DNA of 64,000 nt, taken from assembly GCA_041660605.1 (NCBI GenBank), contig JBAZWB010000001.1:9295-73294 (forward strand), written 5' to 3'. The first letter of the stretch is position 1. The number at the start of each line of letters is the position of its first letter. This DNA is from Patescibacteria group bacterium (lineage in GTDB: Bacteria; Patescibacteriota; Patescibacteriia; UBA10025; JAHIVO01). Below the pieces are notes generated by a model. The model had not been told where the DNA came from, ran no database searches, and saw only the letters and a program-made list of their open reading frames with translations. Both the position numbers and the translations under genes were made by a program. Below are positions 25,361-48,102 of this stretch, piece by piece.

Positions 25361-25420
25361 CCCGTTTAGAAATATTAATTTCTAAACGGGGTTGACAAAT
25401 TGAACGATCTGGGGTAAGGT
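25361..25420 (+). promoter_or_regulatory. Perfect palindrome CCCGTTTAGAAA-TATTAA-TTTCTAAACGGG abutting a TTGACA -35 box (short member of the CCCCGTTAGAAAAT element family)
   Basis: Seen at 25361-25397; downstream candidate -10 TAAGGT / TGCTATGTT; precedes the 25483 gene. Confidence 0.4.
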
Positions 25421-25482
25421 GCTATGTTAAAAAGAAAAGGAAGTAAAATAGCACCTAAAATTTCCAAGGACGAGGAGAAGAA

Positions 25483-25947
25483 ATGGACAAGCAAAAAACT
25501 GGTCTCAATTGTGGGTGTGCCAATACTTTGGCATTATTGCTGAAACAGGGCAGAGGTGATGATGAAGCCGAGCGGCACGAGATTCTTAATGAGTTAGTAA
25601 CGGAGTTACTGGCTTCTGATTTTAACGAAGATAAGGTTGCCCATCTGGCTGACCAGTTGTGCGCGGCGGGCATGGATGGCGCCGAAGTTGGCGGGTATAT
25701 GCTGTCCTGCATGGCTTTTCAAGAAGCCTCCAGCGGTGACAAAGGCCATGAAACCTGGGAACGCTGTAAGGTAAAGTGGATTATAGCCTGCCGGCGTTTC
25801 GAAATTAACGAATTCTCAATCAGAGAAGCGCTAAGAGTCGGCGCAGAATTCAGGGCACCTCTGGCGAAACTTTCGCCTGAAGATCGGGCCTTTGCCATTT
25901 ACAAGCGTTTCTTCGAATCAGTAAGTGCGGAGGAAGAGGAAGAATAA
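25483..25947 (+). CDS. Hypothetical protein, acidic C-terminus
   Basis: 154-aa ORF, RBS AGGAGAAG upstream; no recognised domain. Confidence 0.45.
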   Translation: MDKQKTGLNCGCANTLALLLKQGRGDDEAERHEILNELVTELLASDFNEDKVAHLADQLCAAGMDGAEVGGYMLSCMAFQEASSGDKGHETWERCKVKWIIACRRFEINEFSIREALRVGAEFRAPLAKLSPEDRAFAIYKRFFESVSAEEEEE

Positions 25948-26134
25948 GGCGGGCAAGTAAAATCTGTTACGCCAAAAATTATTTGTCTAAAATACCCAAG
26001 GGTCGCTGTGAAAGCACGGCGCCCTTTTTTTTGCATTGACAGCGAAGTAAAGAAGTGATTAACTCTTATAAAAGAGGGAACGTTCATTGAAACAGGAAAA
26101 ATGGATTTTTCAATATAGAAGAGGGAGAAGTGTC

Positions 26135-27421
26135 ATGAGTCGTATCAGGAACTTTCGTTTAGATAATGGGGCACAGGTATTAATCGCTCCGGATGAGCGC
26201 GCTATTGATGTGGGGTTGGCTATCGCTTTGCGAGCGGGCAGTGCTGATGAGCTAACGAAGCTTTACGGCGCCACGCATTTACTGGAGCATTTGATGGGAC
26301 ACAATCTTGGCAAGCACCAAATGCTAACGCAGACCAGCCAGGAAATTGATCGGTTGACTACTGGGTCCAACGCTTCAACCGATCGGCATGTGACGATTTT
26401 TCATTTTGAAACCACCGCCGGCAATTTTTCTGATTTGATTGAGCTGGCATATCAAATGATTGTTCATCCGCATATTTTCCGGCCGATGGTGGACACGGCA
26501 ATCGGCCAAGTGGCTGAAGACATCAATCGCACAGACAGTGAACCAGACCGGTTAGTGGCAGACAGGATCATGTCTGATTTTCACCTCGGCGAGGAAGTAA
26601 GGCATTCTATTTTTGGCACGGTTGAAGGTTTGGGCCGTATTAGCATACCGGCACTGCGCCAGTATCACCGCCAAATTGTTTGCGGGCAAAGGATGGTGAT
26701 CGTAGTTACCGGAAAAATCAGGGTTGGCACAGCAGAAAGAATAATCAGGAAGCAATTTGGTAATTTGCCGGCTGGACAGGCAGTTTTGCCGATTTCTTTC
26801 AGACCTAGCCTGCGGCGACGCCTGACCTGCCTGCCGAATCATGACCTGCCGACAGTCTTTTACGGAGTGTCATTTCCCCTTCCTTTCACGCCATGGGACA
26901 AGCACTCCTTGCCTTACCATTACATAAGCAAGCGATTAGTCGGGCTGGATTCATCGTCGCTTACCTTAAGGGTGGTTAAGGAGCTGGGTACTTCATACAG
27001 TTTTGCAGGAGATGTCTGGGATTTTCCGGACGGCAGCCGTTTTTTAATCACTTCAACGGCAGAACCAAAAAATCTTCTCCAGCATATATTTCTGATTTTT
27101 CTGGAATTGGCAGAGCTGGGGAACGGGAGTCTTAAACCAGGCAACCTTGATATGATTACCCGACATTTGCGCCATGAAATTGACAAGCAAGCTCTCAGCC
27201 CAATGGATCAGGCTAATGAATTTGCAGAACAGCTGGTCACTAACGGCCGGATTACTACTAGCAGTTCATTTGCCAGAAGCGCCAGCATGATAAATGTTGA
27301 AAAGGTCAGAAGACGGGTCCGCACCCGCTTGCAGCCGACCCAGTCGCAGGTATCAATGGTCGGCCCGGTAGATCGTACATTATTACAGCGCGTCAGGCGC
27401 CTTATCAGTTCGCAAAACTGA
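26135..27421 (+). CDS. M16-family (pitrilysin/insulinase-like) zinc peptidase homologue (track ORF starts at a TTG at 26087)
   Basis: Inverted zinc-binding motif HLLEH (..GATHLLEHLMG..); GAGGGAGAAG RBS before ATG 26135. Confidence 0.6.
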   Translation: MSRIRNFRLDNGAQVLIAPDERAIDVGLAIALRAGSADELTKLYGATHLLEHLMGHNLGKHQMLTQTSQEIDRLTTGSNASTDRHVTIFHFETTAGNFSDLIELAYQMIVHPHIFRPMVDTAIGQVAEDINRTDSEPDRLVADRIMSDFHLGEEVRHSIFGTVEGLGRISIPALRQYHRQIVCGQRMVIVVTGKIRVGTAERIIRKQFGNLPAGQAVLPISFRPSLRRRLTCLPNHDLPTVFYGVSFPLPFTPWDKHSLPYHYISKRLVGLDSSSLTLRVVKELGTSYSFAGDVWDFPDGSRFLITSTAEPKNLLQHIFLIFLELAELGNGSLKPGNLDMITRHLRHEIDKQALSPMDQANEFAEQLVTNGRITTSSSFARSASMINVEKVRRRVRTRLQPTQSQVSMVGPVDRTLLQRVRRLISSQN

Positions 27422-27515
27422 CAAGTTGCATTACACCAAAAAGATGAACGCTTGGTTCCGATACCAGGCGTTTTTTTATATTTTTTTATTTAATACGCGG
27501 AGTAATTTCCCGGTA

Positions 27516-27580
27516 GCAGAGCAAGCTCTGCACCTACGCATATTAAACTGGGTAGGTGGCGAGCTTGCTCGCCTACGTAG
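27516..27580 (+). repeat. Double-hairpin repeat unit (GCAGAGCAAGCTCTGC..ACCTAC...GTAGGT..GGCGAGCTTGCTCGCC); an inverted copy lies at 61589-61650
   Basis: About 62-nt near-identical sequence at two loci in opposite orientation; forms a three-helix structure. Confidence 0.6.
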
Positions 27581-27611
27581 ATTTCTTCCTCAACAATTTT
27601 AAAAAGTAATC

Positions 27612-27755
27612 GTGGTTATCCCGCCATCGCCCTCGCCAGCTCGGGCTACGGCGGGATTGTTAACTTCGCTTAATTTTGTTCGTCATTTTATTAATTATTA
27701 AATACGTGGTTATCCCGCTATCACCTTCGCTCCACTCAGGTTCAGCGGGATTGTT
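27612..27755 (+). repeat. Two direct copies (27612-27661, 27706-27755) of a roughly 50-nt hairpin unit GTGGTTATCCCGCC...GGCGGGATTGTT
   Basis: Seen directly; each unit is an interrupted palindrome (ATCCCGCC / GGCGGGAT). Confidence 0.5.
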
Positions 27756-27837
27756 CAAGTAGCCAAATTTCCATCGCTGATTTTTTTATTTATGTATTTT
27801 TATTCAGCTCGTAAATTTTGCTACTTGAACAAAAAAA

Positions 27838-27906
27838 CCAGGGATAATCACTTGCGCCAGTCCTTTAACATTATATTAAAGAATAAGTGTAAGCGATTAT
27901 CCCTGG
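27838..27906 (+). repeat. Nested hairpin element CAGGGATAATC...(CTTTAACATTATATTAAAG)...GATTATCCCTG
   Basis: 11-bp perfect inverted repeat arms enclosing an inner palindrome. Confidence 0.4.
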
Positions 27907-27977
27907 AACATGTAATGAACTCTTTTCTCTTTTTATTTTTGTTTTTCTAGCCTCATTATAGCGCAAAAAATGGGTTT

Positions 27978-28069
27978 TGTCAACCCCGTTTAGAAAATTT
28001 TTATTAAACACTATTTAATCAAATAAACTGGCTATTCCGAAACAACTAGCGCATAAATAAATCAATTTT
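27978..28069. repeat. Palindromic element, CCCCGTT(T)AGAAAAT family, copy 2; its TTGACA faces left (minus strand)
   Basis: Left end TGTCAACCCCGTTTAGAAAAT, right end ATTTTTCTAACGGGG; about 92 nt. Confidence 0.5.
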
Positions 28070-28237
28070 TCTAACGGGGCCAAGCGAAAGCATCTTATTT
28101 ATTTGAACAAAAAAATTGGATAAAATAATGTTGACAATTAGCCGGGAATTCATTAAGGTAATATGATTGCATTGATCTTTGACATTAATGTGAAATAAAG
28201 TAAATGAAGATAAAATCTTTTTTGGAGGTATGTAATT

Positions 28238-30604
28238 ATGTCTAACCCACTTGCGAATCCTAAGCCGGGCACTTACACAGATGTGCGCGAATTGGATTAT
28301 TTTAGCGTAGTTCCGCTTACTACGGTCGGTTTTCTTGTTAAGCTATTTGAATATTACCGGGCACAATGCACGGTACTCTACAACTTCGCCTTAAGCGGTG
28401 AGGGCAGCGGGCATCCAGGCGGCAGTATTTCTGCCGGCCGTATCATGCTGGCGCTTCTCCTGGAGTCCACGTCTTTTGACATCACCCAGCCGCGCCGGCC
28501 AGACGCCGATAGGTTCATCCAAGCTGAAGGCCATACTGCTCTTGGTGGATATGCTGTGCGCGCCTTGTTCGATGAATTCGCGCGTGTTGATCAGTGTAGT
28601 CTTCTGCAAGGGTTGGATGATGCTTTGCGTTTAAGACTGGTTGATCTGTTGCGCTTCCGGCACAATTCAGAACATAATCTGCCGCTTTCTGTTTTGCATA
28701 ACAGTAAATCGTTAGGCGGCCACCCCGATCCTTCCATTCCTTTTGTGGATCTGGCTACTGGCGCTTCGGGCGTTGGTGAGTGCGCCGCTGTTGGCAGAGC
28801 ACTAACTCTTCTGGACCATTTCGGCAGAAATGCTCCCTGGGTGCACTTCCTGACAGGCGAAGGGAGTATGACGCCTGGCCGTGTTGCCGAGGCGGCAGCT
28901 ATAGCGGCCAGCGGGCATATCTGGAACCTGGTAGGGCACGTGAACTTCAATAATTGCTCTATCAATTCGGACAGAGTGTGCCCGGCAGACGGCCAGCCTG
29001 GAGACTATATGCAATGCACTCCCGCTGGATTTTACCTGATGCATGGCTGGAATGTATATGAAGTTGACGGCACCAGTTTTCCGCAGATCATTATGGCTCA
29101 GCGCCTGGCGCGCCAGCAAAACAACGGTTTGCCGACGGCTATTGTGTATCACACCATCAAGGGCGAAGGTTACGGCATTGAAGGCAGGAAGTCGCACGGT
29201 GCCGGCCACCCCTTCTGCAGCGAAGCGTATTACCACTCACTGGCAGGGTTTGAAGCAGCCTTTGGCGTGCAGGTACCAAGGCGTGTCAATGAGGAGTCGC
29301 CCGTGGAGATTGAAAAACTGTATTTCAATACTCTCATGACCTTCCGCCAAGCAGCAGAAATGTTTACTGATTTGCCGCATTACGTTGGTGAGCGAATAGT
29401 GAAAAGCCATGATAATCTCGGGAGCCTGAACCGGACGCCTCGGAAGGGATGCCCGCAGTTAGGCCGTCTTTATGATGGCAGCGGAGGTATTTCTCCAGAG
29501 GAGATCCCCGCGGATCTGGTACTTCAGCCTGGCACCAAAACCACTTTACGCCTTCAGCAGGCCAGGGTACTTCGGCTTATCAATAAGATAACTGGCGGGG
29601 CGTTAATTTGCTGCTCTGCTGATCTGGACGAATCAACTTCTATTATTGAGGCAGCCAGGGATTTCGCTATGGGTTTTTGGGATGCGGCGGAAAATCCTTA
29701 TTCACGTTTGCTGGCTATCGGTATTCGTGAGGATGGCGGTGTTGGGGCAATGACCGGCGCGTGTGAATTCAATATGGGTGTTGTCGCGTCCTACGGCGGA
29801 TTTTTGTCGGCGATGGGACATACGGCAGCGCGCTTGCATTGCGATGGTGAGCAGGGATATTCGCTGGCTACCGGCAGTCACTACCGGACTGTAGTATTGG
29901 TTAACGCGCATACTGGTTATGGGACTGGTCCGGATGGTGCGTCACATGCTGATGGCCAGTGCACGCAGCTTTTTGAAGGTAATTTTCCCCTAGGATTTGC
30001 GATTACCCTGACACCCTGGAGTCCGGATGAATTGTATTCGCTGACAGTAGCTGGCTTGCTGAAACGACCGGCTGTACTGGCATCTTTCGTTACCAGGCCG
30101 GCAGAGGTTGTGCTGGATCGCGTGCAATATGGCCTGCCACCGGCGACTGCCGCGGCTAAGGGCGTTTACGCATTTCGTACGGCTGATCCTACCGACCCGC
30201 AGTACCGTGGCACTATCTTCCTCCAGGGGAGCGCGGTAACCTACGAGTTCATCCAGCATGTCCTGCTGAAGATTGACGAGGCTGGCTGGAAGATGAATGT
30301 CTTCTATATAGCCAGCCGCGAGCTCTATGAGCTTCTGTCCGCAGAAGAGCAACGCGCTATCGTGCCGGATTACTGCCTGGCTGAGGGCATGGGCATCACC
30401 GATTTCACCATGCCTACTATGGAATGGATGGTCGGCAGCCGCTTTGGCCGCGAATATTCGCTGCATGCTTTTTCCGCCGGATACTTTCCTGGCAGCGACG
30501 CCGCTTCGGCCGTACTGAAGGAAATGGGCATGGACGGTCTGTCGCAGTTGCTGAAGGTGCAGGAGTATGCCGAAGCATTTCACCAGAAGTTTCACATTAA
30601 ATAG
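28238..30604 (+). CDS. tkt: Transketolase, divergent and long (788 aa) with insertions
   Basis: SGHPGGS thiamine-diphosphate motif, DRFIQAEGHTALGGYA, TGASGVGECAAVGRA, GEGSMTPGRVAEA...NFNNCSINSD (GDG-X-N TPP motif), all co-linear with TktA; about 58% GC. Confidence 0.75.
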   Translation: MSNPLANPKPGTYTDVRELDYFSVVPLTTVGFLVKLFEYYRAQCTVLYNFALSGEGSGHPGGSISAGRIMLALLLESTSFDITQPRRPDADRFIQAEGHTALGGYAVRALFDEFARVDQCSLLQGLDDALRLRLVDLLRFRHNSEHNLPLSVLHNSKSLGGHPDPSIPFVDLATGASGVGECAAVGRALTLLDHFGRNAPWVHFLTGEGSMTPGRVAEAAAIAASGHIWNLVGHVNFNNCSINSDRVCPADGQPGDYMQCTPAGFYLMHGWNVYEVDGTSFPQIIMAQRLARQQNNGLPTAIVYHTIKGEGYGIEGRKSHGAGHPFCSEAYYHSLAGFEAAFGVQVPRRVNEESPVEIEKLYFNTLMTFRQAAEMFTDLPHYVGERIVKSHDNLGSLNRTPRKGCPQLGRLYDGSGGISPEEIPADLVLQPGTKTTLRLQQARVLRLINKITGGALICCSADLDESTSIIEAARDFAMGFWDAAENPYSRLLAIGIREDGGVGAMTGACEFNMGVVASYGGFLSAMGHTAARLHCDGEQGYSLATGSHYRTVVLVNAHTGYGTGPDGASHADGQCTQLFEGNFPLGFAITLTPWSPDELYSLTVAGLLKRPAVLASFVTRPAEVVLDRVQYGLPPATAAAKGVYAFRTADPTDPQYRGTIFLQGSAVTYEFIQHVLLKIDEAGWKMNVFYIASRELYELLSAEEQRAIVPDYCLAEGMGITDFTMPTMEWMVGSRFGREYSLHAFSAGYFPGSDAASAVLKEMGMDGLSQLLKVQEYAEAFHQKFHIK

Positions 30605-30693
30605 TTTGGAGGGATTAGTTCTATACGCCGCCGGCTCGTGCAAACACGGGTTGGCGGTTTTTTTATTAATAATTAGTTGTATAGGCAGCTTAA

Positions 30694-30825
30694 CCCCGTT
30701 AGAAAATTATAAAACATCTATTTGGTTATTAAAGAAGGATAAAACCAAATTACCGTTTAAAATCACCATGGCCATTAGCTAATTTTCTAACGGGGTTGAC
30801 AGCACCTGTAATTGAACGCTAAAAT
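30694..30825 (+). repeat. Palindromic element copy 3 (15-bp terminal inverted repeats CCCCGTTAGAAAATT / AATTTTCTAACGGGG, about 102 nt) fused to the promoter TTGACA-N18-TAAAAT
   Basis: Terminal repeats at 30694-30708 and 30781-30795; TTGACA 30796-30801; TAAAAT 30820-30825; the interior is the reverse complement of the copy-4 interior. Confidence 0.55.
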
Positions 30826-30885
30826 GAATAATCTAGAAAAGCAAAATAAGTATTGATCTTTACCATATTACAAGAGAGGTTTGTG

Positions 30886-32106
30886 ATGAATAAAGCAGAC
30901 GCGGTTTTAATGCAAGCAATTGAAGCCAACGGATTGGCAGACCGCCTGACTCAGCTCGACCGAGAAACAGCTTTTTTGGTTCTCAAACAAGCCAGAGAGC
31001 TTGAAGCGAGAGGTAGAACTATAGTTCACTTAGAGATCGGCGAGCCTGATTTTTCTTCGCCGGCCGAAGTGGACCAGGCCACTATTCAGGCGATTAAGGA
31101 CGGACAGACGCACTATGTCGGTTCGCAAGGCATCCCCGAACTGCTGGAAGCGATCGCGGCGGACGTTTCTGAAACGCGCGGGATTTCGGTCGATCCGAGC
31201 AATGTAATCATGACCGTGGGCGCGAAAGAGGTGATTAGCTTCACGATCTTATCGCTGGTCAATCCTGGCGAAGAGGTAATCTACGCTACGCCTTCTTATC
31301 CCATCTATCCGTCGCTGATCAATCTTTTTGGCGGCGTCCCCAGACCGCTTCGCCTGCGTCCGGAAATTGGCTTCAACCTTGAACTGGATGAATTCGAATC
31401 ATTGCTCGGCGAAAACACGAAACTGATCATCCTGAACTACCCGCACAATCCTACCGGCTGTATATTCAGGCCCAAAGCACTGAAAAGAGTTGTCGAGCTG
31501 GCAGCAGAGCGGGGCATCTGGATACTGGCGGATGAAGTTTATAAGGACATTATCTATGATGATGCCTTTACCAGCGTAGCGACTCTTAAGGGCGGGCTTG
31601 ACCATATTATCCTAATGGATGGGTTTTCGAAATCATTTGCCATGACGGGTTACCGGATCGGTTATGCCGTAGTACCGGATTGCCTGCGCAAGCCATTTGT
31701 TGACTTGTGCAACAATATGCATTCGTGCGTAACCTCGTTTGTGCAGGTGGGCGCGATAGCCGCTCTGGCTGATCCGACAGGAGAGGTTCGCCGGCTCATA
31801 CAGCAGCGGAGGCTGGAGTTCCGGGCCCGCCGCGATCTTATTTGCGAGGGTTTGCGCCACATCCCCAGTTTCCGCCTGACAGCCACTCCGCCAGGCGCCT
31901 TCTATGTTTTTCCGGATATCCGGGAGACCGGGCTCACTTCTGATGTTCTGGAGCAGAGATTGCTGATAGAAGGCGGCGTGGCAGGGCTTTCTGGCACAGC
32001 CTTCGGACCGGAGGGAGAGGGCTTCCTGCGACTTTCGTACGCGAATTCACAAGACAACATCAAGTTGGCTCTTGAATGGATCGCAACATTTGTCGGCAAG
32101 CTCTAG
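30886..32106 (+). CDS. Class I/II PLP aminotransferase (aspartate/aromatic type)
   Basis: LILNYPHNPTG, SKSFAMTGYRIGY (PLP-lysine) motifs; AGAGAGG RBS before ATG 30886 (track ORF 30853). Confidence 0.8.
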   Translation: MNKADAVLMQAIEANGLADRLTQLDRETAFLVLKQARELEARGRTIVHLEIGEPDFSSPAEVDQATIQAIKDGQTHYVGSQGIPELLEAIAADVSETRGISVDPSNVIMTVGAKEVISFTILSLVNPGEEVIYATPSYPIYPSLINLFGGVPRPLRLRPEIGFNLELDEFESLLGENTKLIILNYPHNPTGCIFRPKALKRVVELAAERGIWILADEVYKDIIYDDAFTSVATLKGGLDHIILMDGFSKSFAMTGYRIGYAVVPDCLRKPFVDLCNNMHSCVTSFVQVGAIAALADPTGEVRRLIQQRRLEFRARRDLICEGLRHIPSFRLTATPPGAFYVFPDIRETGLTSDVLEQRLLIEGGVAGLSGTAFGPEGEGFLRLSYANSQDNIKLALEWIATFVGKL

Positions 32107-32292
32107 TCTTGATAGCACATCAGATGATGTTCTATAACCGGACGTCCCGTGACGTTCGGTTTTTATTATATAAAACAAATAACCTAGATGGGCATTTGTT
32201 AGTTAATATTAGTATTCAATAAATAATCTTATATTCTTAAATATTTAATGCACATAGAAACAACCGTTAAAAGCTGGTACAATGTAATAGCT

Positions 32293-35070: not shown

Positions 35071-35124
35071 AAAAAGCCAAGGAGGTGAATCCCGGGCTTT
35101 ATAATCTAGAGTCGTAAGGATCGA

Positions 35125-35445
35125 CTACAATGTAAGTGACAAGTGGCCGGATTTTTCGACCTTGATAATACCGTTGCCAATCATGCGTAGAAGTTTCCGA
35201 TCTACGGTTGATGAGCTATAGGTTTGGTCGAGGTAGGTATGCAGCGTATCAATACTGACCTTTTCCTGGCATTTGGCGGTAAGGTATTCGATGGTAAGGG
35301 CAACTCCGCAGGCTGGTTTATGAGTCAAGGCGGAGTCGTTAATGCACTTTCTAATGAATTCGATTCTCTCGTTTTCACTAGTAAAGAGTGTTAGGGTTAC
35401 CTTGCCGCGGACATAAGTTAAGAAAGGTCCGACCATATTTGCCAT
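35125..35445 (-). CDS. Hypothetical protein (106 aa)
   Basis: ORF between polA and holA; no motif recognised. Confidence 0.35.
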   Translation of the reverse strand: MANMVGPFLTYVRGKVTLTLFTSENERIEFIRKCINDSALTHKPACGVALTIEYLTAKCQEKVSIDTLHTYLDQTYSSSTVDRKLLRMIGNGIIKVEKSGHLSLTL

Positions 35446-35531
35446 TTTTCCTCCATCATTGGTGTTGTTTGTTTTAGTGTCAATTTTTATTACGTCATGT
35501 TAATATATACGGAGAACTAGTATTTGTCAAT

Positions 35532-36518: not shown

Positions 36519-36523
36519 ACAGA

Positions 36524-36787
36524 TTATTTCAGTTTGCCGAGCGCCTTCATCATCCGCGATTTCAGTCGTGAGGCGGTGTTTCTTTTGATGATTTTGCTCT
36601 GAGCTGACTTGTCCAGAATCTTAACCGCTTTTTTTACTGCTTCGCTGGCTTTTGCTTTATCTTTTGTTACTAGTACTTTCCGGGCAGTTTTCATGGCCTG
36701 CTTGATTCTGTTTTTGACGGCCACATTTTTGGCAGTATGTCTTTTTGTCTGCTTCAAATGTTTGATAGCTGCTTTTTTGATTGGCAT
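36524..36787 (-). CDS. rpsT: 30S ribosomal protein S20
   Basis: MPIKKAAIKHLKQTKRHTAKNVAVKNRIK... Lys/Ala-rich 87 aa, typical of S20. Confidence 0.85.
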   Translation of the reverse strand: MPIKKAAIKHLKQTKRHTAKNVAVKNRIKQAMKTARKVLVTKDKAKASEAVKKAVKILDKSAQSKIIKRNTASRLKSRMMKALGKLK

Positions 36788-37241
36788 AGGTTTGTTGGTA
36801 GTAAGTAGTTAGTTGTTTGTAGGAATCAGTGTAGCAGGGTTTATTTATTTTATCAAGGGTTTTAATTTACTTTTCTGTCCGCACCCCGCTATCCAGCGGG
36901 GCAGGCGCCAAAGTAACAAAAGAAGTGCCGCCGGTACAAAGAAATTAACAAAAACAGGCTCGTCGTCATTCCGCGTTGTAAACTCGCTCCTCGCTGTCGC
37001 TGCGTTCGCTCAAACAGTACAACGCGGTTGCCCATGGGCAACCATTCCTCCTCGCTCTGTTTTCGCCGCGCCCGCCGAAGCTTCGCTTCAGCGTTGCGGG
37101 CGGGTAACATTTCTTTGTAATCGGCGGATTAAATAATTTTACTACGATTACTCCGCAATGGGCGGGCTTGGGCATTATTAAAGAATTGGGAAATTGATGA
37201 TTGTAAATTGTTTGGAATTTGGGAATTGGATATTGGTACTT

Positions 37242-38174: not shown

Positions 38175-38403
38175 GGGGGTAGTTAATAGTAGGTAGTGAG
38201 TAGTAGGGAGAAGGTAATTAGCAGCTAATAATATATTAGCAGGCAATATTTAAGATAGGATTAAGCAATATACTACATAATTATAGCAGATTTGGCGGTG
38301 GATATATCGCTTTGACAAAACAGGCGTTCCGGTAGTAAGATTAACTCTTCTCAAAAAACAAACACAGAAAATGATATCTTTGAAAAATAGATTGGAGGAA
38401 GCA

Positions 38404-39873: not shown

Positions 39874-39898
39874 GTTCAGTCAGATTTTTGATTTTACA

Positions 39899-39936
39899 AA
39901 GCCGTTCTCATTTGGAGGAGAAGAACGGCTTTTTTA
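39899..39936 (+). terminator. Rho-independent terminator of purF
   Basis: AAGCCGTTCTC...GAGAAGAACGGCTTTTTT. Confidence 0.55.
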
Positions 39937-39939
39937 AAT

Positions 39940-40030
39940 ATGAAGAAACGCCTACGGTTTTTCTTCATCGCATCTTTTCCCTAAGTTGTATCGCTCACCT
40001 TGGGACCTTATAACCCAAGGTTCGCGATGA
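39940..40030 (+). repeat. Roughly 90-nt repeat element, copy 1 (begins with the hairpin ATGAAGAAA-N11-TTTCTTCAT and ends ...CCTTGGG..CCCAAGGTTCGCGATGATTTATT)
   Basis: Near-identical to 45827-45960, same orientation, except for a 35-nt hairpin insertion in copy 2. Confidence 0.6.
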
Positions 40031-40352
40031 TTTATTATTTTTAATAGTTACGCCTTCCATCGGTTTTACCTCTAGCGAAAGTGGATGCGGCACGAAACCC
40101 GCGTGCTCGCGATTTTTTATAATTAATCTATAAAGGGGCTTGGTAGGATGAGTAGTCGATGCTTGGCATGATTATTAAATAGACATCTATTGATAATTGT
40201 GGGTGGTTTTATTAAGTGTGGTTTATAACTCAATAACGTCTGTCACTTTTTTAATTTGACATATTTGCTTTATTTTTGTTAAGATACGCTAATTAATGTA
40301 ATTGAAAGATCATTGTTATAACCTATAAAACTCTAGTTAGGAGGAGTTACAA

Positions 40353-41813
40353 ATGTCAGGAAAAAACGTACTGACAGCGCTAAGCAATCTGCCGGAACTC
40401 ATTCTGGCGATTATCCAAAAGCCGGATCTCATCATGGAGATTATCGGCAGGTGGAGGGAGCTGTTCAAGGTTCCCAGCAAGCAGAAACGCCAGCTGGGAG
40501 ACTTACTGCTGGATGAGCATCCCGCGATCACGCGTTTAGTGCTCAGGCAGGTCATGGCGGGTTCTCTGGATCTGAGCAAGTTTGTGACTGATTTGCCGGA
40601 AACGTATCAGGAAGATGCCAACCTCCGGATCACGGCTGTTTTGCTTTTCCTGTACGCGACCAACGATTCGCTTCTGAATAGGACGGACAAAGGATTTCCG
40701 ACTGTTGAATGGCTGGATCTCAAGGCACCTGAACCGACTCCCGTGGTGCGCGGAAAAAAGAAAACCGGCAAGAAAGGAAAGAAGACGCCTAAGGGTGCCG
40801 ACAATGCCAAGCCAGGCAAACCCGTGCCGGCCTCGAAACTGAAAGGCGTGAAGAAATTCGCGGACTTGCTGGCCAAATGCGGCAGCTTAGCAAATTTGCT
40901 GGCAACTTTCGAAGCGCACTCCGGCAAGGATGGGAAACTGACGCCATTTCTGCACGTCTGCGAAATATCAAACAGCACCTGGTATCAGTGGGCAAAAAAG
41001 GCGCACGCGATGGAAGCGGAAGCTGAAAAGGGTGGCGGAAAACCTGACAAGGGGTCGCCTGAAGGAGAAAAAGCCGTCCGTGGAAGGCTGGGAGAATTTA
41101 TCACCCAGCACAAAACGGCTGCCGAAGCCCTGAAAGTCCTGCAGTCTAAGCCGGAAGACAAAACGGTCCATGAATACGCAGAGTCGCTGGGCATTTCCGA
41201 CGCCAGTTACTACGCTTGGCCGGCCAAGCTGGTGGAATTAGCGGAAAAGGAGTCGAAAAAACCAGATGGAGGTCCTGGCAACGCCGACGACGGAACCGAT
41301 GTTACCTCTAAGGTGGTGGCCAAGCTTGGCAATAAAGCCAACGCCAAAGAGATGATTAAGGAAGCTGGGTCTATGTTGCAGCTGGCCATTAATCTTGGTG
41401 TCGCTGGCCTGACTACGTCCAATCTTGGTTATATTCTGCTCCACAAGTACGGTTTGCGCCTTAGTAAGGTGCTGGCGGAACCTGACGGAGCCGATGCGCC
41501 AGACGGTGGTAATCCTCCGGACACTGGCAAGAAGGGTAGCGCTGACACTACCTCACCGATCATGGCTGGGTTGTCTATATTGACTTCCGCAGATATGTCT
41601 GATGATCAGAGGCAGAAATTCTGCGAATTTGCCAGCGCTTTAGGCGCTAGTACAGCCAGTGAAGTTTTCGAAATCGTGGAGAAGGGAGTGAAGGATGATT
41701 TTCCCAAGGCGGCTGCGAAGTTTGTGGAAGCAGGGATTTTAACAGCTTCGTCAGCAGGGGAGCCTCCGGTGGAACAGAAATACTTTAAGTGGAAGTTCAA
41801 ACTGGTCCACTAG
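40353..41813 (+). CDS. Hypothetical protein (486 aa) with a Lys-rich low-complexity segment; first gene of a 3-gene operon
   Basis: TAGGAGGAG RBS; TTGACA-N17-TTAAGAT promoter at about 40253; KKKTGKKGKKTPKG tract. Confidence 0.5.
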   Translation: MSGKNVLTALSNLPELILAIIQKPDLIMEIIGRWRELFKVPSKQKRQLGDLLLDEHPAITRLVLRQVMAGSLDLSKFVTDLPETYQEDANLRITAVLLFLYATNDSLLNRTDKGFPTVEWLDLKAPEPTPVVRGKKKTGKKGKKTPKGADNAKPGKPVPASKLKGVKKFADLLAKCGSLANLLATFEAHSGKDGKLTPFLHVCEISNSTWYQWAKKAHAMEAEAEKGGGKPDKGSPEGEKAVRGRLGEFITQHKTAAEALKVLQSKPEDKTVHEYAESLGISDASYYAWPAKLVELAEKESKKPDGGPGNADDGTDVTSKVVAKLGNKANAKEMIKEAGSMLQLAINLGVAGLTTSNLGYILLHKYGLRLSKVLAEPDGADAPDGGNPPDTGKKGSADTTSPIMAGLSILTSADMSDDQRQKFCEFASALGASTASEVFEIVEKGVKDDFPKAAAKFVEAGILTASSAGEPPVEQKYFKWKFKLVH

Positions 41814-41968
41814 GATTCAACGTTATTTGATAGTAGTCTAAGTTCACGCTCTCTCGGGGGTGTGAACTTTTTTATTCCTCCCGCTTAAATATTTCATATT
41901 GACTTAAATTGTTTTATATAATAAGATTGGCTAATTATGTTCTTTTTCACAATCAATTGGAGGGGAAA

Positions 41969-42889
41969 ATGAGAATAAATTCCATTTTCAGTGTGGAAAC
42001 ATATCTCAAGAAACTTCTGGAAATTCTCCCCAAGTTTGACCAGGAATTATTCTGGAATGTTTTGGGGAAGCAGAGGTGGTTTCTGGAAATTATTGGCAGC
42101 CTGAAATTGCCGGCCTTATGCCTTCTGGACGATGAAAAATACTGGCGGTTTATCGGCAGCAATAACTGGCTGTCAGGTTTCAGCGGTGAGGTGACTTTTG
42201 ACGAGCTGGCAGCTGCTTTTCCAACCTGGTACCGCGATCCAGGCGCGTCTATGTCTGCTGAATCTTTTCAGGTCGCCCTGGGATTGTTTATCTGGCTGAA
42301 AACCGCCGAGCAAATGGGACTGGTAAGGCTGGTAAAATCCAAGCCTAAGCCGGTTAAAGACGGAAAAACATTGGCAGAAGAAGCGCAGTGCCGGGAAATT
42401 GCCGCTCGTTTCAACAAAGTGGGCTTGTGGAGGAAGGTTTTGGATGGCAAATTGCCTTTTGCCTCGTTGGACAGTTTACGCCAGTGGGTGAGTGAGCATC
42501 AGAACACATTTGGCTTGCCAGTCGACGTGGTGACAGCCTTCATTACCCAGAAGTCGGTTTGTTTCTCGCAGTCCGGCCGGATATTTTGGCGCCATCCCTG
42601 CGGATTTATTTTTACCGACGAGTGCTACCGCTCTTTCAGAAGTTTATTTATCCAGGATGATCCTGCGGCTGAAGCTGGATCGGTGGCGGACCAGTATCAC
42701 AGGCACGGGGGCAATGATACCAGGTGGAGCGATAGATTCTCCGAAGAATACGGTTTTGGCTGGTTTATCGTTACTACTCTGGCGGAATACTATTTTGGCA
42801 GCCTGGGCAAGGTACCGAAGACGCCACCGTTTTCAGAGGCAAGTGCGGTTATTGAGACGACCCTGCAGATCAGTCCGAACAAAATCTAA
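41969..42889 (+). CDS. Hypothetical protein, paralogous to the N-terminal extension of the downstream sigma factor
   Basis: GGAGGGG RBS before ATG 41969; shared blocks with the next gene (FWNVLGKQRWF/FWGFLSKQGWF; LFIWLKTAEQMGL/LFYWFRTAEKMEL; WRHPCGFIFTDECYR/WQHPSGLRLTEDAYCR). Confidence 0.5.
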   Translation: MRINSIFSVETYLKKLLEILPKFDQELFWNVLGKQRWFLEIIGSLKLPALCLLDDEKYWRFIGSNNWLSGFSGEVTFDELAAAFPTWYRDPGASMSAESFQVALGLFIWLKTAEQMGLVRLVKSKPKPVKDGKTLAEEAQCREIAARFNKVGLWRKVLDGKLPFASLDSLRQWVSEHQNTFGLPVDVVTAFITQKSVCFSQSGRIFWRHPCGFIFTDECYRSFRSLFIQDDPAAEAGSVADQYHRHGGNDTRWSDRFSEEYGFGWFIVTTLAEYYFGSLGKVPKTPPFSEASAVIETTLQISPNKI

Positions 42890-42989
42890 GCCTGTATCCA
42901 GCAATGGTACAGGCTTTTTTATTTGACGATTGCACGCTTATATATTAGAGTATCTTAATAAAGTTCTTTGATAAAAGAGGAGTAGAAAA

Positions 42990-45248
42990 GTGAAAATAAC
43001 TGATACGACAAGCGTTTTCTATTTTTTCCAGCAGTTGATGCAATCACTGCCAACATTGGAGGCGGGTGATTTTTGGGGATTCTTATCCAAACAGGGATGG
43101 TTTTCATCGATGGTGAGCAGCGTAATTGTCCCACCACCGGAGAGTTTTGGAACACAGGAATTCTGGCGACTGACCAACAATCAATTTTGGCTGATGGATG
43201 TTTTGGATGCAGCGAGCAATAACGGGAAATGCCTGGTTTCCGGTGAATTGCGCCGTTTGTTTCCGAAATCTCTGAGGTCATGCCGAACTCAAAAACCGGG
43301 GAAATCTTTTATCCTGGCATGCGAGCTTTTTTATTGGTTTCGCACTGCCGAGAAGATGGAGTTATTTAGCGTAATTCAGGCTGCCCAGACGCAAACGGCA
43401 TTGTACGTTTCGCTGGAATCCGGCAAGTCAGTTGAGATTAGCCGGGCGATTCAGGATATTTGGACGCAGTGCGGTTTATGGACTGAAGTGGCTAAGCGTC
43501 TCAATGCCACGATTGATGAGCTGCGTGAGTGGCTTAAGTGTTACGCGAATTTGCTGCAAGACGGCATTACCAGCGAGATCCTACGGCCTTTTCTGACCGG
43601 ACAGGCGGAAAAAACCGGGGACGGCTGCTGGCAGCATCCTTCCGGGTTACGTTTGACTGAAGATGCATATTGTCGACTGGTGTTCTTATCAGTAGAGCAG
43701 AACATCAGCGAAAGGGAGCTGATTGTCGCGACTTACGAGAATTATAAAGCCGGCGAGATGAAGCAGATATGCGAACATTTGTGCCTGTCTGCCACGCATT
43801 TTCTGGTTTTGGTGCAGTACTACCGCGGTTCGCTGACTAGGAACAATCTAGAAAGCATTAACAGTTTTTTTGATCCACCGCAGCCGGTTGACGGCTGCAG
43901 CGGCCTGGATCTGCTGTTGGCTTTATTAGAAAAAGCCGATGACTATCTTTTTCCCACGTTTTCCCGGATTATGAATCATGATGCCCGGGCACTTGCATTG
44001 TCTGAAGAAATTGAGCCAGTGCTCCGTTCAGTTCTGCGGCCGCTTAGTGATGACGATTTTTTTGAATATCTGCTGGAGCACGAATCTATTCTGCCTCTTC
44101 TGCCGAGAACCGAAAACGGTAGGACGGTGCCCTGGAGTGTTTTTTCGCAGTATGCCCCGGGAATATTAAGGCAGGTAGTCAGCCAGGAAGTTTTGCTCGA
44201 GGTAGCGCTTTGTTTTGTCTGGCTGTTTCACGCCCGCCTTACGCTTGATTTCAGCGTTTCGGTACCCGTGAAAAAGAGGAGAGCAAGGTCTGCGGCTGTT
44301 GTGGTTGATGTTGATATTGACGGGGATCTGGACGCGCACAGCGAAACGCAATATTCCCCGCGCCGCAGGCGAAAACATTCCAAATATGATATTCTCGAAA
44401 ATCCATCGCTGGATTTGTATTTAGTGGAGATTGGCCGGACTCCTTTGATTAACAGGGACGAGGAGGTGGCTTTGGCAAAGCGTATTCAGGATGGCGATAT
44501 TGAAGCTTTGCATAAGCTGGTGAAAGCCAACTTGCGTTTTGTCGTTTCTGTAGCCAAGTGTTTTCAAAATCAAGGTTTGCCATTAGCGGATCTGATTAAT
44601 GAGGGAAACATCGGGTTGATTAAAGCCGCCAAACGTTTTGACTGGACGCGCGGCTTCAAATTCATCAGCTACGCGGTTTGGTGGATTCGCCAGACTATTT
44701 GCCAGGCCTTGGCAGAGGGTGCCCGGACAATCAGATTGCCGTTGAACCGCATAGGTACCCTGCACAAGATCAACAAAACCAGGGAGAAATTGCTTCAAGA
44801 CCTTGGTCACCCTCCCAGTGATAAGCAAGTGGCCGATGAACTTGGGATGAAAGAGGAAGATGTGGCCTTTACTTTGATGGCGGGTAGTGGGTCGCTTTCG
44901 CTGGATAACACGCTCTCGACTTCCGGCGATAGTGAAACTACTTTGCTGGAAGTCATACCTGATACCGGTCCGGCTCCGACGCAGACAGTCATGGATGATA
45001 GTCTGCATGGCGAGATTATGGCAGCGCTTGATCAGCTGAGTGTGAGAGAAACAAGGATAATCAAGCTTTATTTCGGTATTGACCAGGAAAAAGCCCTGAC
45101 TCTGGAGGAAATTGGGGCTATTGAAAACGTGACTCGGGAAAGGGTCCGACAGATAAAAGAGGATGCGATTCGCAGGTTGCGCAGAGGGAAAGCGTCAAAA
45201 TTTTTACGGGCTTATTTCGATGATCAGGATAGGGAGGGAGCAAGATAG
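42990..45248 (+). CDS. rpoD: RpoD-like sigma-70 factor carrying a roughly 440-aa N-terminal extension
   Basis: C-terminal 290 aa show regions 1.2-4.2 (EEVALAKRIQDGD, ANLRFVVSVAKCFQNQGLPLADLINEGNIGLIKAAKRFD, YAVWWIRQTI, TLEEIGAIENVTRERVRQIKEDAIRRLRR); GTG start with AAGAGGAG RBS. Confidence 0.8.
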   Translation: MKITDTTSVFYFFQQLMQSLPTLEAGDFWGFLSKQGWFSSMVSSVIVPPPESFGTQEFWRLTNNQFWLMDVLDAASNNGKCLVSGELRRLFPKSLRSCRTQKPGKSFILACELFYWFRTAEKMELFSVIQAAQTQTALYVSLESGKSVEISRAIQDIWTQCGLWTEVAKRLNATIDELREWLKCYANLLQDGITSEILRPFLTGQAEKTGDGCWQHPSGLRLTEDAYCRLVFLSVEQNISERELIVATYENYKAGEMKQICEHLCLSATHFLVLVQYYRGSLTRNNLESINSFFDPPQPVDGCSGLDLLLALLEKADDYLFPTFSRIMNHDARALALSEEIEPVLRSVLRPLSDDDFFEYLLEHESILPLLPRTENGRTVPWSVFSQYAPGILRQVVSQEVLLEVALCFVWLFHARLTLDFSVSVPVKKRRARSAAVVVDVDIDGDLDAHSETQYSPRRRRKHSKYDILENPSLDLYLVEIGRTPLINRDEEVALAKRIQDGDIEALHKLVKANLRFVVSVAKCFQNQGLPLADLINEGNIGLIKAAKRFDWTRGFKFISYAVWWIRQTICQALAEGARTIRLPLNRIGTLHKINKTREKLLQDLGHPPSDKQVADELGMKEEDVAFTLMAGSGSLSLDNTLSTSGDSETTLLEVIPDTGPAPTQTVMDDSLHGEIMAALDQLSVRETRIIKLYFGIDQEKALTLEEIGAIENVTRERVRQIKEDAIRRLRRGKASKFLRAYFDDQDREGAR

Positions 45249-45250
45249 AC

Positions 45251-45290
45251 AGCCGGCATGATAGTTTATACTGTTATGACCGGCTTTTTT
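45251..45290 (+). terminator. Rho-independent terminator of the sigma-factor operon
   Basis: AGCCGGCATGATAG...CTGTTATGACCGGCTTTTTT. Confidence 0.5.
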
Positions 45291-45826
45291 ATTTCGGGAA
45301 ACCCCATTTAAGAAACGGTGTTTCCCGACGCCTTTCCCCAAAGTTAAGGCATTTATTTCGTCGCGCAGCCTGGCGGCTTTTTTTCGAGAAGCGTTTGATT
45401 GATCGTTCACTTTTTATGAAATAACCCTAATTGTGTGATTGAGAGCGGTGTCTTTATTCAAAAAAAATACCCTCATCAATAATCCCCTTACAGTTCGGGC
45501 ATGTCATCTCCTTGTGCCTCCGGAGACACTCCTACGCTGTTGGGCTATGGAGGATGATTGATGAGGGACGGGGTTAGCCTAAGAAAGCGGTGGTCGTGAA
45601 CGGGGCATCCATCGCGACCAAGCTTAGGCTCATGGCTCTCGAGAAGAGCTATTAATATTCTAGCATATTTTGACTGTCCCGCAAGATTGCACCCAACGGT
45701 CACCGGAGTTTTTTTGTGAGTGTGGATCCATTCAGTGTATTTAGTGACTTCGTGATGTTTTTTCTGACTTTTTAAGCGCAGTAATTTCGTCTCGTAACTG
45801 AGCCGCTTTTTCAAATTCCAAAATCT

Positions 45827-45960
45827 ATGAAGAAACACCTACGGTTTTTCTTCATCGCTACTTTTCCCTAAGTTGTATCGCTCACCTTGGGACCTCCCGC
45901 CCGACTGCTTCACATTCGAAGCGGGCGCGGTATAACCCAAGGTTCGCGATGATTTATTTT
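45827..45960 (+). repeat. Repeat element copy 2 (with a 35-nt GC-rich hairpin insertion); overlaps and extends the 3' end of uvrB
   Basis: Aligned base by base with 39940-40030; the uvrB reading frame continues through it. Confidence 0.6.
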
Positions 45961-47959
45961 GATTTCTAATTGCTGCAAGCTGGTCTCTCAATAAAGCTGC
46001 TTTCTCGAAATCTAGATTCTTTGCTGCTATTTCCATTCTAGACTCAAGGTCTTCAATGAGATGCGGGATTTCTTCTTTGGGAATATTTTTGAAAAATGAC
46101 TGGGAGGAATCTTCCTCCTTAAGTCTTCCGCCGGCTAAGCGCGATTCTTTGATAGCTTTTATAATGGATTGCGGAGTAATGTGATGTTTTTTATTATAAT
46201 CTTCCTGCATTTTTCTGCGCCGCACGGTTTCTTTTATTGCCCTGTCCATTGAGCCGGTCACCTTGTCCGCATACATGATGATGTGCCCTTCGAGATGCCG
46301 TGCGGCGCGGCCCATGGTCTGCATCAGCGCGGTTTCCGAGCGCAGATAACCTTCTTTATCGGCATCCAGGATGGCAATCAGGGAAACTTCCGGCAGATCC
46401 AGCCCTTCACGCAAAAGGTTGATCCCCACCACTACGTCAAACTTCCCTAAGCGCAGATCACGCAGTATTTCCAGCCTTTCCATAGTGTCCACTTCAGAGT
46501 GCAAATACTGGACTTTTACGTCCAAATCAGCCAGATATTCCGTCAGATCTTCAGACATGCGCTTGGTCAGGGTGGTAACCAGCACCCGCTGTTTTTTCGC
46601 CACGGTTTTTTTAATTTCTCCTAAGAGGTCATCAATTTGATTTTTTGTCGTCCGGATTTCAATAGTCGGATCCAGCAAGCCGGTTGGCCGGATTAACTGT
46701 TCGACGATCTGGTCTGAAATTTCCTTCTCATATTCACTGGGCGTAGCGGAAGCATAGATAGTTTGCCTGGCGCGCTTTTTAAATTCTTCAAAAGTCAGCG
46801 GCCGATTGTCCATGGCAGCCGGCACGCGGAAGCCGAAATTAACCAGCGTTTCCTTGCGTGAACGGTCGCCGAAGTACATGCCTTTGATCTGCGGCAGGGT
46901 CATGTGCGATTCGTCTATGAACAGCAGGAAGTCTTTAGGGAAGAATTCAAACAGTGTATTTGGTGGAAGTCCCGGCCGGCGCCCGTCGAAATAGCGCGAG
47001 TAATTTTCAATGCCATTGCAAAAACCGATTTCCCGGATGGTTTCAATGTCATAGCGGGTCCGCTGTTCCAGCCGCTGGGCTTCCACTAGTTTGTTTTCGC
47101 TCTGGAATTTTTTGACCTGCTCTTCCATGTCGTGCTGGATTTGCTCCAGCGCGTTTTTCATCATCTCGTCCGGCGCCAGATAGTGCCGCGCCGGGTAAAT
47201 ATCCACTTCCGGCAGCTGAGCAACTATTTTGTTCGTTAGAGAATCAACTTCAGAGATTTTTTCTATCTGGTTGCCGAAGAATTCAATCCGATAAAAATTG
47301 TTTTCTGAGAAAGGCGGGAAGACTTCCAGGATTTCGCCCAGCACGCGGAAACGGCTGCGCCACAAATCAGTCTGGTTCCTCTGATACCGGTTGTTGACCA
47401 GCGCGTGCAGGATAATGTTGCGGTCGTAGTTTTGCCCGGATTTGAGATTTATCACATCGCGCTTGTATTCCGTGGGCGAGCCGAGGCCGTAAATGCAGGA
47501 AACCGAGGCCACGATGATCACGTCGTTTCTGGAGAGCAGGGCCTGCGTTGAGGCATGCCGCAGGCGGTCGATTTCTTCGTTGAGCTGAGTCTCCTTTTCT
47601 ATGTAGGTGTCGGTTCTGGGTATATAGGCTTCAGGCTGGTAGTAGTCGTAATAGGAAACAAAATAATTGACGGAATTATCAGGGAAAAAATCCTGGAATT
47701 CGCTGGCCAGCTGGGCAGCCAGCGTTTTATTATGCGAAATAATCAGCGTCGGTTTCTGCAATTGCTGGATGACGTTGGCCATGGTGAAGGTTTTCCCTGA
47801 GCCGGTTACGCCTAATAATGTCTGGTTGCGATGGCCTTTTTTTAGGCCAGCCACGAGCTTTTTAATGGCTTGAGGCTGATCTCCGGTTGGTTTGAATGGT
47901 GACTTTAATTTAAACTTCATAAGTAAATATACTATAACTTTGGCGGTCGGATTCGTCAA
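45839..47959 (-). CDS. uvrB: Excinuclease ABC subunit B
   Basis: Walker [10 protein letters not shown], helicase motifs, and C-terminal UVR motif [12 protein letters not shown]; the last roughly 45 codons are supplied by the repeat element. Confidence 0.9.
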
Positions 47960-47966
47960 AGGTTGG

Positions 47967-48102
47967 CCCCGTTAGAAAATTAGCCAATGGCCGTTTGATA
48001 ATAAACAATAATTTTATTTGAACCTTCTTTAATAACCAAAAAGATGTTTTATAATTTTCTAACGGGGTTGACAAAAAGAGGAAACCGTAGTAGGTTGTAG
48101 TG
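47967..48102 (+). repeat. Palindromic element copy 4 (terminal repeats CCCCGTTAGAAAATT / AATTTTCTAACGGGG, about 107 nt) with outward TTGACA-N17-TAGGTT
   Basis: Terminal repeats at 47967-47981 and 48053-48067; TTGACA 48068-48073; interior is the reverse complement of the copy-3 interior (for example ...CCTTCTTTAATAACCAAA.AGATGTTTTATAATT). Confidence 0.55.

Follow-up and report, generated by a model that had tools for sequence, protein, structure and literature searches.

Palindromic elements abutting −35 boxes in a Patescibacteria contig probably belong to a widespread family of miniature transposons

Why should four palindromic sequences of a single bacterial contig each end directly against a TTGACA hexamer? 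The sequences lie within a 64,000-nt stretch (the window) of an uncultured Patescibacteria group bacterium (assembly GCA_041660605.1, contig JBAZWB010000001.1, positions 9,295 to 73,294 of the forward strand) and are here named E1 to E4. A first-pass annotation had read them as a mobile palindrome that donates promoters or, alternatively, as an operator that defines a regulon. The analysis described below suggests, with a probability that we put at roughly 0.75, that E1 to E4 are four copies of a non-autonomous terminal-inverted-repeat transposon (miniature inverted-repeat transposable element, MITE) inserted in the TTGA of existing sigma-70 −35 boxes, that the family to which they belong is tolerated at the 5′ edges of genes, and that a small unit encoding a GIY-YIG nuclease is its likely partner.

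All four repeat-bearing loci were present as first described, each abutting GGGG/TTGACA at one end. E3 (102 nt; 30694-30795) and E4 (101 nt; 47967-48067) are bounded by perfect 15-bp repeats, CCCCGTTAGAAAATT in E3, and E2 (96 nt; 27984-28079) by arms CCCCGTTTAGAAAATT and AATTTTTCTAACGGGG with one indel each; in these three copies, the terminal inverted repeats measure 15-16 nt and the elements 96-102 nt. E1 (25360-25391) is indeed a minimal version made of inverted repeats only, T-CCCGTTTAGAAA-TATTAA-TTTCTAAACGGG-G, with 12-nt arms CCCGTTTAGAAA, a gap of 6 nt and an extra T/A present in both arms alike. Its predicted hairpin has a free energy of −18.1 kcal/mol, the stems of the window elements ranging from −16.7 to −28.3 kcal/mol. 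E2 is flipped as reported, its TTGACA lying on the minus strand (27983-27978) and facing left. The proposed reverse complementarity of the E3 and E4 interiors also held, the first 32 nt being nearly identical and the remainder diverged; the interior of E2 is unrelated to both. With up to two mismatches, the 15-mer CCCCGTTAGAAAATT occurs 6 times in the window (0.22 expected). The 16-mer TCTAACGGGGTTGACA, which joins the repeat to TTGACA, occurs 5 times with up to three mismatches (0.36 expected), one of the five matches being the distal end of E3, TCTAACGGGGTTAAGC, which is without TTGACA. The window contains 43 TTGACA hexamers; four are preceded by GGGG, and all four of these are element ends. 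Relaxed searches detected no further copy, whole or decayed, in the window. Searching Rfam with E1-E3, at gathering scores as well as up to E = 10, gave no credible match; a hit to psRNA6 at the left end of E3 (13.5 bits versus a gathering score of 60) was ascribed to chance.

The family was sampled with the pattern CCGTTAGAAAA-N55-85-TTTTCTAACGG, which demands exact ends and does not include TTGACA, in GTDB contigs (one genome per species) and in JGI metagenomes. At least 120 loci were found in each collection. Listed GTDB matches include 69 from Patescibacteria, 16 from Omnitrophota, 8 from Planctomycetota, 7 from Desulfobacterota-like bacteria and 4 from Nitrospirota; Nitrospinota, Bacteroidota, WOR-3, Chloroflexota and others are also represented, for about 12 named groups altogether. 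No match to the pattern was found in 2.9 million viral contigs, BLAST of E3 against 72,556 plasmids returned chance matches only, and a 22-mer specific for E3 and E4 had no match in metagenomes. The statistics given here rest on the 233 unique copies (234 in some counts) among the listed matches of both samples; individual loci outside the window are designated by L numbers.

The consensus of the unit is Y-CCCGTTAGAAAA(T)...(A)TTTTCTAACGGG-R. Its conserved part is Y-C-CCGTTAGAAAA, beyond which pairing continues weakly for 1-4 nt inward; the core YCCCGTTAGAAAA is present in all 233 copies, and the repeats of the family span 13-17 bp. The outermost pair (positions −2/+2) is complementary in 96-97% of the 233 copies, as C..G in 135 and as T..A in 86. 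Interiors are either about 65-75 nt long or absent, unconserved and approximately 35% G+C. Copies range from 26 to 111 bp, occur in both orientations and contain no transposase gene. They can be dense: the window has four in 23 kb, and L242, L218, L138 and L087 have 3-4 per 8-12 kb. Minimal copies of 26-34 nt exist in more than 15 other genomes, many with 4-bp flanking duplications of their own. In several of the minimal copies (L089 1932-1958, L196, L241 and E1), departures from the consensus are mirrored in both arms, as in GTTGGA/TCCAAC; either pairing has been selected or one arm has been copied from the other. A subfamily of seven (L012, L036, L041, L054, L057, L081 and L120) shows a conserved two-hairpin interior whose changes look compensatory by eye. 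At least four of its members (L012, L054, L057, L081) lie in frame inside an open reading frame (ORF), that of L012 having a nucleotidyltransferase domain, and the orientation of the duplication relative to the interior is the same in 7/7.

Comparison of the flanking sequences revealed the footprint of insertion. In 137 of the 233 copies (59%), the 4 bp outside the element form an exact direct repeat, T-N-N-A, against 18.7 (8%) expected on re-paired flanks; 0/1000 re-pairings reached the observed count, and the effect was replicated in the second sample. Around this target there is a weak preference for a purine before T-N-N-A and for a pyrimidine after it. Each window copy is flanked by a duplication in which 3 of 4 bases match. 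At E1, TTGA (25392-25395) is paired with a distal remnant CTGA (25356-25359), positions being those defined by the family-wide analysis; at E2, the proximal TTGA (27983-27980) and the distal TTGG (28083-28080) are read on the minus strand; at E3, TTGA (30796-30799) has its partner in TTAA (30690-30693), and at E4, TTGA (48068-48071) in TTGG (47963-47966).

The TTGA of TTGACA thus occupies the duplicated target positions (+3 to +6), and the CA, the spacer and the −10 box belong to the outer flank. Therefore, the −35 box is target DNA rather than cargo, and the insertions would have struck the first four bases of −35 boxes already present. A TTGAC-like hexamer in the exact register of the window copies was found in 21 of 234 family members (about 9%), with a good −10 at 16-18 nt in 15 of those. 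Among 11 copies with TTGA as the duplicated target, nine continue with CA, CC or TA. About 90% of the copies are without TTGACA at the end and have other tetranucleotides there (TGAA, TAAA, TTCA and others). We infer that the promoters are older than the insertions. The gene-side copy of TTGA would keep its CA, spacer and −10 intact, leaving a promoter that still works and that the element merely adjoins.

Uninterrupted versions of some target sites are known. In L022, an element interrupts the 16S rRNA gene at GTGCCAG^CAGCCGCGG, and CCAG is duplicated. This element (7539-7644) sits in the universally conserved 515-533 region of 16S rRNA, 30 nt downstream of a group I intron (7217-7511). The start of ssb, ATGAAYCT, is filled in six genomes (L009, L098, L142, L162, L187 and L201) and empty in the window at position 22230. 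Both comparisons of filled and empty sites, 16S rRNA of L022 and the ssb start, are between species. Some sites recur: the ssb start in the six genomes just mentioned and the uvrB start in two Giovannonibacteria (L047 and L061), E4 itself lying 7 nt upstream of a uvrB −35 box. Altogether, the conserved terminal repeats, the 4-bp duplication, the variable interiors, the occurrence of both orientations, the hairpin-only versions and the known uninterrupted sites bear out the initial description of a MITE-like mobile palindrome.

The family also meets tRNA genes. In five cases, a tRNA gene starts within the final few bases of an element, and four intact tRNA genes are framed exactly by the repeat pair (L088 1660-1768, L184, L224 and L227; Ser-cga, Pro-cgg, Thr-cgt and Pro-tgg). 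In L088, a second, broken class-II tRNA-like gene carries the entire tRNA-bearing unit within its anticodon arm. The idea that the interiors are degenerate tRNAs was discarded: ARAGORN finds four true tRNAs in 234 copies and none in the remainder, even at relaxed thresholds.

The promoters beside the window elements were inspected individually. The site abutting E2 (27955-27983, minus strand) is TTGACA-17-TATAAT, a 12/12 match, and that abutting E3 (30796-30825, plus strand) is TTGACA-18-TAAAAT (11/12), upstream of an aminotransferase gene starting at 30886; these are the two best sigma-70 matches in their 5.8-kb region. At E1, TTGACA (25392-25397) is followed after 17 nt by TAAGGT (25415-25420; whole site 25392-25420, plus strand), upstream of a 154-aa ORF (25483-25947). 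At E4, the promoter-like site (48068-48096, plus strand) is TTGACA-17-TAGGTT with a weak −10; downstream of it, an extended −10, TGgTAAAAT, precedes the ATG (48130) of an unknown 964-aa protein. Of the −10 boxes initially considered credible, TAAAAT at E3 stands, and TAAGGT at E1 and TAGGTT at E4 do not, matching at 3/6 positions and failing the promoter scan. The other end of E4 is 7 nt from a divergent promoter, TTGACG-17-TATAGT (47931-47959, minus strand), of a uvrB gene whose product has UvrB domains. The assignment of E2 to the tkt-like gene had to be abandoned: the promoter at E2 faces left, toward a non-coding unit of about 115 nt that ends at a terminator, and the tkt-like gene has a promoter of its own, TTGACA-17-TAAGGT, 50 nt from the opposite end of E2. 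The units served have no evident common function: at E1 an unknown 154-aa protein, at E2 the small non-coding unit, at E3 the aminotransferase and at E4 the unknown 964-aa protein.

These data bear on three regulatory explanations of the palindromes. A mobile promoter donor of the Correia type, in which the element carries or creates the −35 box and switches on its neighbour, would account for the GGGG/TTGACA end with a −10 at 17-18 nt in 4/4 window copies and for the same arrangement in 21/234 family copies, and Correia elements have been reported to generate promoters at their ends (PMC2649163, PMC10969869). We nonetheless consider promoter donation distinctly improbable. The TTGA falls on duplicated target positions whose distal remnants are still visible, CA and −10 are flanking DNA, roughly nine-tenths of the copies present another tetranucleotide, and in any insertion into R/TTGA/C the TTGAC was already there beforehand. 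The opposite orientation of the E3 and E4 interiors further rules out a directional internal promoter and, together with the unrelated interior of E2, argues that the interior contributes nothing directional. That the palindrome is the binding site of a dimeric regulator, and so defines a regulon, is highly improbable: a perfect dyad does lie directly upstream of the −35 box in 4/4 copies, and the arms of minimal copies co-vary, but the half-sites are 6 nt apart in one copy and 64-72 nt apart in the others, target duplications flank the copies, and the genes served are unrelated. Across the dozen or so named groups, these ends also turn up on start codons and within ORFs, 16S rRNA genes and tRNA genes.

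Scarcely credible is an inverton, that is, a segment between the repeats that a recombinase would flip. It would explain why E3 and E4 have reverse-complementary interiors, and Correia elements are reported to invert (PMC10969869). However, the promoter is outside the repeats, so that flipping changes nothing; two other, independent assemblies of the same genome, base-identical over 16-22 kb covering E1-E3, show no mixed orientation; and random orientation of insertion explains the pattern. Two further candidates were rejected. Core sites of an integron attC have the order 5′-RYYYAAC ... GTTRRRY-3′. Here the order is 5′-GTTAGAA ... TTCTAAC-3′ on both strands, and there is a target duplication in addition. 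Nor is a terminator role supported: the stems are not followed by a T run, and the genes upstream already possess terminators.

If the window copies are insertions into existing −35 boxes, they represent one of several gene-edge classes. A more frequent one involves start codons: in 69 of 234 copies (about 29%), the element's final base doubles as the first base of a real gene. Genes with recognisable N-termini at such places encode TopA, ClpP, SSB, TpiA, UvrB, SMC, FolD, S13, enolase, GroES, L24 and others, and in L145 (295-1160) a ribosomal-protein operon has successive start codons occupied by elements. Start-codon copies account for 53/86 of those ending in T..A as against 15/135 of those ending in C..G. 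Insertion into the target A/TGAA/Y would leave the old ATGAA upstream, the terminal purine of the element rebuilding ATG or GTG downstream. The frame entered from the old start reads M-N-P-V-R-K..., and the repeats are stop-free in two of the three frames. This old-start frame is open through the A+T-rich element in 19/31 copies (3.3 expected; 0/2000 shuffles) and, in the replicate, in 12/20 (2.6 expected; 0/2000 shuffles), hence in 31/51 in both samples together (about 6 expected); the other frame and the opposite orientation are open at background level. For most of the open frames, the stop is either the TAA in the right repeat, which lies 7 nt ahead of the rebuilt start, or a TGA that overlaps this start; a few continue further or form an in-frame fusion with the gene. 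L047 and L061, the two copies on the uvrB start, have interiors that differ in length and sequence, and in both the frame is open, one in each of these stop configurations.

An open frame that leads to a stop touching the new start implies translational coupling. Ribosomes initiating at the old start would read through the element, stop at the TAA or TGA and re-initiate on the host gene. Some copies lie in frame within genes, reading PVRK...FSNG: these are found in DUF72, LPG synthase (LPG_synthase_C), ComEC (Competence) and nucleotidyltransferase (NTP_transf_2) genes. In an orthologous pair of ABC ATPase genes from related Paceibacterota (L086 320-418 and L114 4107-4206), the element contains the start codon and the first 18 residues. 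Its coding right half has stayed highly conserved, the two differing there at only about 5 positions by eye, and its left half has diverged strongly. With its two stop-free frames and a terminal purine that rebuilds the start, the family would seem adapted to inserting harmlessly at gene 5′ edges.

What moves these elements? Small GIY-YIG ORFs lie beside copies in L204, L102, L099 and L004, framed by the same end core. Nearly every retrieved homologue of two such proteins has ends (T/C)CCCGTTACAAAT or (T/C)CCCGTTAGAGA, and its stop codon falls within the right repeat or overlaps it; the survey covered 12 protein clusters in at least 10 genomic contexts, including Omnitrophota and Patescibacteria. 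These units, 275-392 bp long, are co-linear with the palindromes, share with them the 10-nt end core YCCCGTTAGA and are filled by a single protein of 85-90 aa consisting of the catalytic domain only (PF01541, in the partner and window units alike). Exceptions are adjacent second ORFs in L261 and L265, which are without clear repeats. Most of the homologues are on contigs shorter than 2 kb, as is usual for repeats. Inverted repeats of at least 14 nt, of several unrelated flavours, flank 10/26 GIY-YIG ORFs versus 0/300 random controls. In L268, a unit occupies the start codon of a glycosyltransferase gene and is flanked by a TGAA duplication. Reading from the ATG of the host gene leads into the nuclease without a change of frame (MNPVRDYS-MFYTY...), and at the far end the rebuilt GTG shares bases with the TGA that closes the nuclease, an arrangement that matches the non-coding copies. 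In L297, the ATG of the next gene comes directly after the stop codon of the nuclease.

A unit of related architecture is present in the window (52883-53196, minus strand). It measures 314 bp and has perfect 15-bp repeats, CCCCACACCTTTTAG, and an 88-aa ORF (53160-52894) whose stop codon is inside the right repeat; an extended −10, TGaTATAAT, precedes the ATG by 6 nt, a spacing that suggests a leaderless mRNA. A second copy of CCCCACACCTTTTAG was found neither in the window nor in 266 retrieved loci. The solved structure nearest to the nuclease is that of BH0048, an uncharacterised UPF0213 protein (PDB 1ZG2). In L253-L261 and L245-L252, a GIY-YIG unit lies antisense in an IS5-family transposase gene and splits it into a DUF772 and a DDE_Tnp_1 ORF; two diverged IS lineages share this insertion position. 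Searching viral contigs with the nuclease-unit patterns yielded three matches, in GC-rich coding sequence without a GIY-YIG gene, which were taken as chance, and no description of such units was found in the literature on GIY-YIG proteins with inverted repeats or duplications.

The autonomous partner of the palindromes is most likely the 275-390-bp unit with core YCCCGTTAGA and a lone 85-90-aa GIY-YIG nuclease, and we presume that the nuclease is what moves the elements. We would tentatively go further, at somewhat less than even odds, and propose that repeat-bounded GIY-YIG units form an unrecognised class of ultra-small autonomous elements (about 280 bp) that insert on T-N-N-A, preferentially at start codons, borrow the initiation signals of the host gene for expression of the nuclease and return the ribosome through a stop-start overlap. 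The 100-nt and 28-nt palindromes, E1 to E4 included, would be non-coding derivatives spread through Patescibacteria, Omnitrophota and about ten other groups.

Alternatively, a conventional DDE/DDD transposase, closest to piggyBac and IS1380, might move the family, the GIY-YIG genes being cargo like the tRNA genes. CCC ends and a 4-bp T-N-N-A recall those of piggyBac (CCC ends, TTAA) and its prokaryotic relative IS1380 (PMC10813416), and clean duplications are typical of DDE chemistry, nuclease units being mostly without them. We regard this alternative as unlikely, though it is to be taken seriously. No transposase-sized ORF was found between such repeats in about 1.7 Mb of loci, and several unrelated repeat flavours each frame a GIY-YIG ORF that fills the unit. 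The two specific candidates were set aside. The likeness to IS1380/piggyBac as a parent is one of resemblance only, as the ends of IS1678, a member of the IS1380 family, are dissimilar (CCTGAATAATTCATAC...) and no clear ends were found for IS1247. The lone transposase beside a copy, of the ISKra4 family in L099, is bounded by different repeats of its own.

Several observations weigh against the view of E1 to E4 as MITE insertions with a GIY-YIG partner. All four window copies abut TTGACA versus about 9% of the family, and all four have duplications matching at 3 of 4 bases, though the repeats of E3 and E4 are perfect. No close relative of this genome was found, the tkt-like protein having its best homologue at 50% identity, and the two other assemblies are base-identical, so that filled and empty sites were compared between species only. 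The sample was drawn with an exact 11+11-nt pattern, so that conservation of the repeats is in part by construction, and translational coupling is deduced from sequence statistics. On the side of the nuclease, no unit with the repeat of E1-E4 is present in the window, where the sole GIY-YIG unit (52883-53196) has different repeats and is not cognate; nuclease units seldom have clean duplications (one perfect in about seven contexts); and transposition by a GIY-YIG domain alone is not known.

A further possibility, compatible with insertion into existing promoters, is that some copies were later kept for a host function, as a processing stem for RNase III or the like, as an insulator or for translational control at the 5′ end. 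The repeats of E3 and E4 are perfect in spite of decayed duplications and differing interiors; those of L047 and L061 are identical, with interiors about 55-60% alike by eye; the four tRNA genes framed exactly by the repeat pair look as if enclosed in a processing stem; and Correia hairpins are RNase III substrates (PMC10969869). Selecting copies by exact repeats inflates their apparent conservation, however, and independent hits on the same hot spot could mimic orthology. Such domestication appears improbable to us.

The surroundings of E2 contain further structure. The non-coding unit of about 115 nt to which its promoter points (27830-27948, minus strand) comprises an A-rich 5′ part, a 34-bp imperfect hairpin and a U run (z = −6.2); neither an ORF nor an Rfam match was found in it, and it may be an unannotated small RNA. 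The intergenic region around it has several further hairpins (27513-27832), namely long inverted repeats (27513-27576 and 27751-27832) and two copies of a repeat of about 50 nt (CGTGGTTATCCCGC...GCGGGAT; 27611-27657 and 27705-27757). Elsewhere in the window, the 23S rRNA gene (8266-11406, minus strand) is 3141 nt long versus a model of 2925 positions, and an insertion of about 200 nt is probable.

How does the family compare with known systems? Correia elements (CREE/nemis) duplicate TA. Like the present family, these Neisseria elements are MITEs of about 100-150 bp with terminal repeats, mostly just upstream of genes, linked to promoters and forming hairpins when transcribed. In contrast, they are reported to carry or complete their own promoter hexamers, to have an IHF site and to be confined to Neisseria; here, promoter hexamers within or completed by the element ends were not found, the −35 box is target DNA, the duplication is a 4-bp T-N-N-A, the interior is unconserved and the copies extend over about 12 named groups. 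An association with the uvrB promoter has been reported for Correia elements as well (PMC2649163, PMC10969869). Rickettsia palindromic elements (RPE) are palindromes found in frame in protein genes and translated (PMC10969869), as are some copies of our family. They differ in being limited to one genus, about 150 bp long and endowed with a conserved peptide, with no start-codon rebuilding or stop-start coupling described; the window copies are, moreover, intergenic. With piggyBac and IS1380, the family shares ends that start with CCC and a 4-bp duplication with outer T and A (PMC10813416); it differs by the rarity of TTAA among its targets, by an extra Y/R pair before CCC and by the failure to find any DDD transposase with these ends.

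Among nuclease genes, free-standing GIY-YIG homing endonucleases and UPF0213/COG2827 proteins have the same catalytic domain. Homing endonucleases additionally possess a DNA-binding domain and rely on repair to home to a single cognate site, whereas the units described here encode a single domain of 85-90 aa, have inverted repeats, occupy many unrelated sites and have non-coding derivatives with target duplications. Repetitive extragenic palindromes (REP/REPIN) are likewise short palindromes dispersed in intergenic DNA with a single-gene autonomous partner. That partner, RAYT, is an HUH Y1 enzyme; REP sequences have a GTAG head and make no target duplication. The present family normally makes a 4-bp duplication, and the gene associated with it encodes a GIY-YIG nuclease.

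Literal searches of 8 million papers for the family repeat returned unrelated matches only, mostly of the primer type by their titles; nothing relevant was found on MITEs in Patescibacteria (candidate phyla radiation) or on transposons linked to start codons or coupling, and a 2024 review of prokaryotic MITEs never mentions start codons. Thus, no earlier description of the family was found in the literature or in Rfam. The T-N-N-A target, the promoter as target DNA, the rebuilding of the start with a kept frame, the spread over some 12 groups and the associated gene set it apart from Correia elements and RPE.

For annotation, a palindrome joined to TTGACA should not be read as a regulatory module: in this family, it marks the landing site of a mobile element. 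For poorly annotated genomes of candidate phyla, the palindrome offers a marker of promoters, start codons and tRNA 5′ ends. Patescibacteria have small genomes generally regarded as poor in mobile DNA; in some of them, this family is dense. It would limit the damage of insertion in a new way, with the start rebuilt, the frame kept open and translation apparently coupled. There is a substantial chance that the autonomous form is a new class of mobile element. If the GIY-YIG nuclease does mobilise the family, it would represent a new enzyme class for bacterial transposons and would provide a function for the widespread UPF0213-type proteins.

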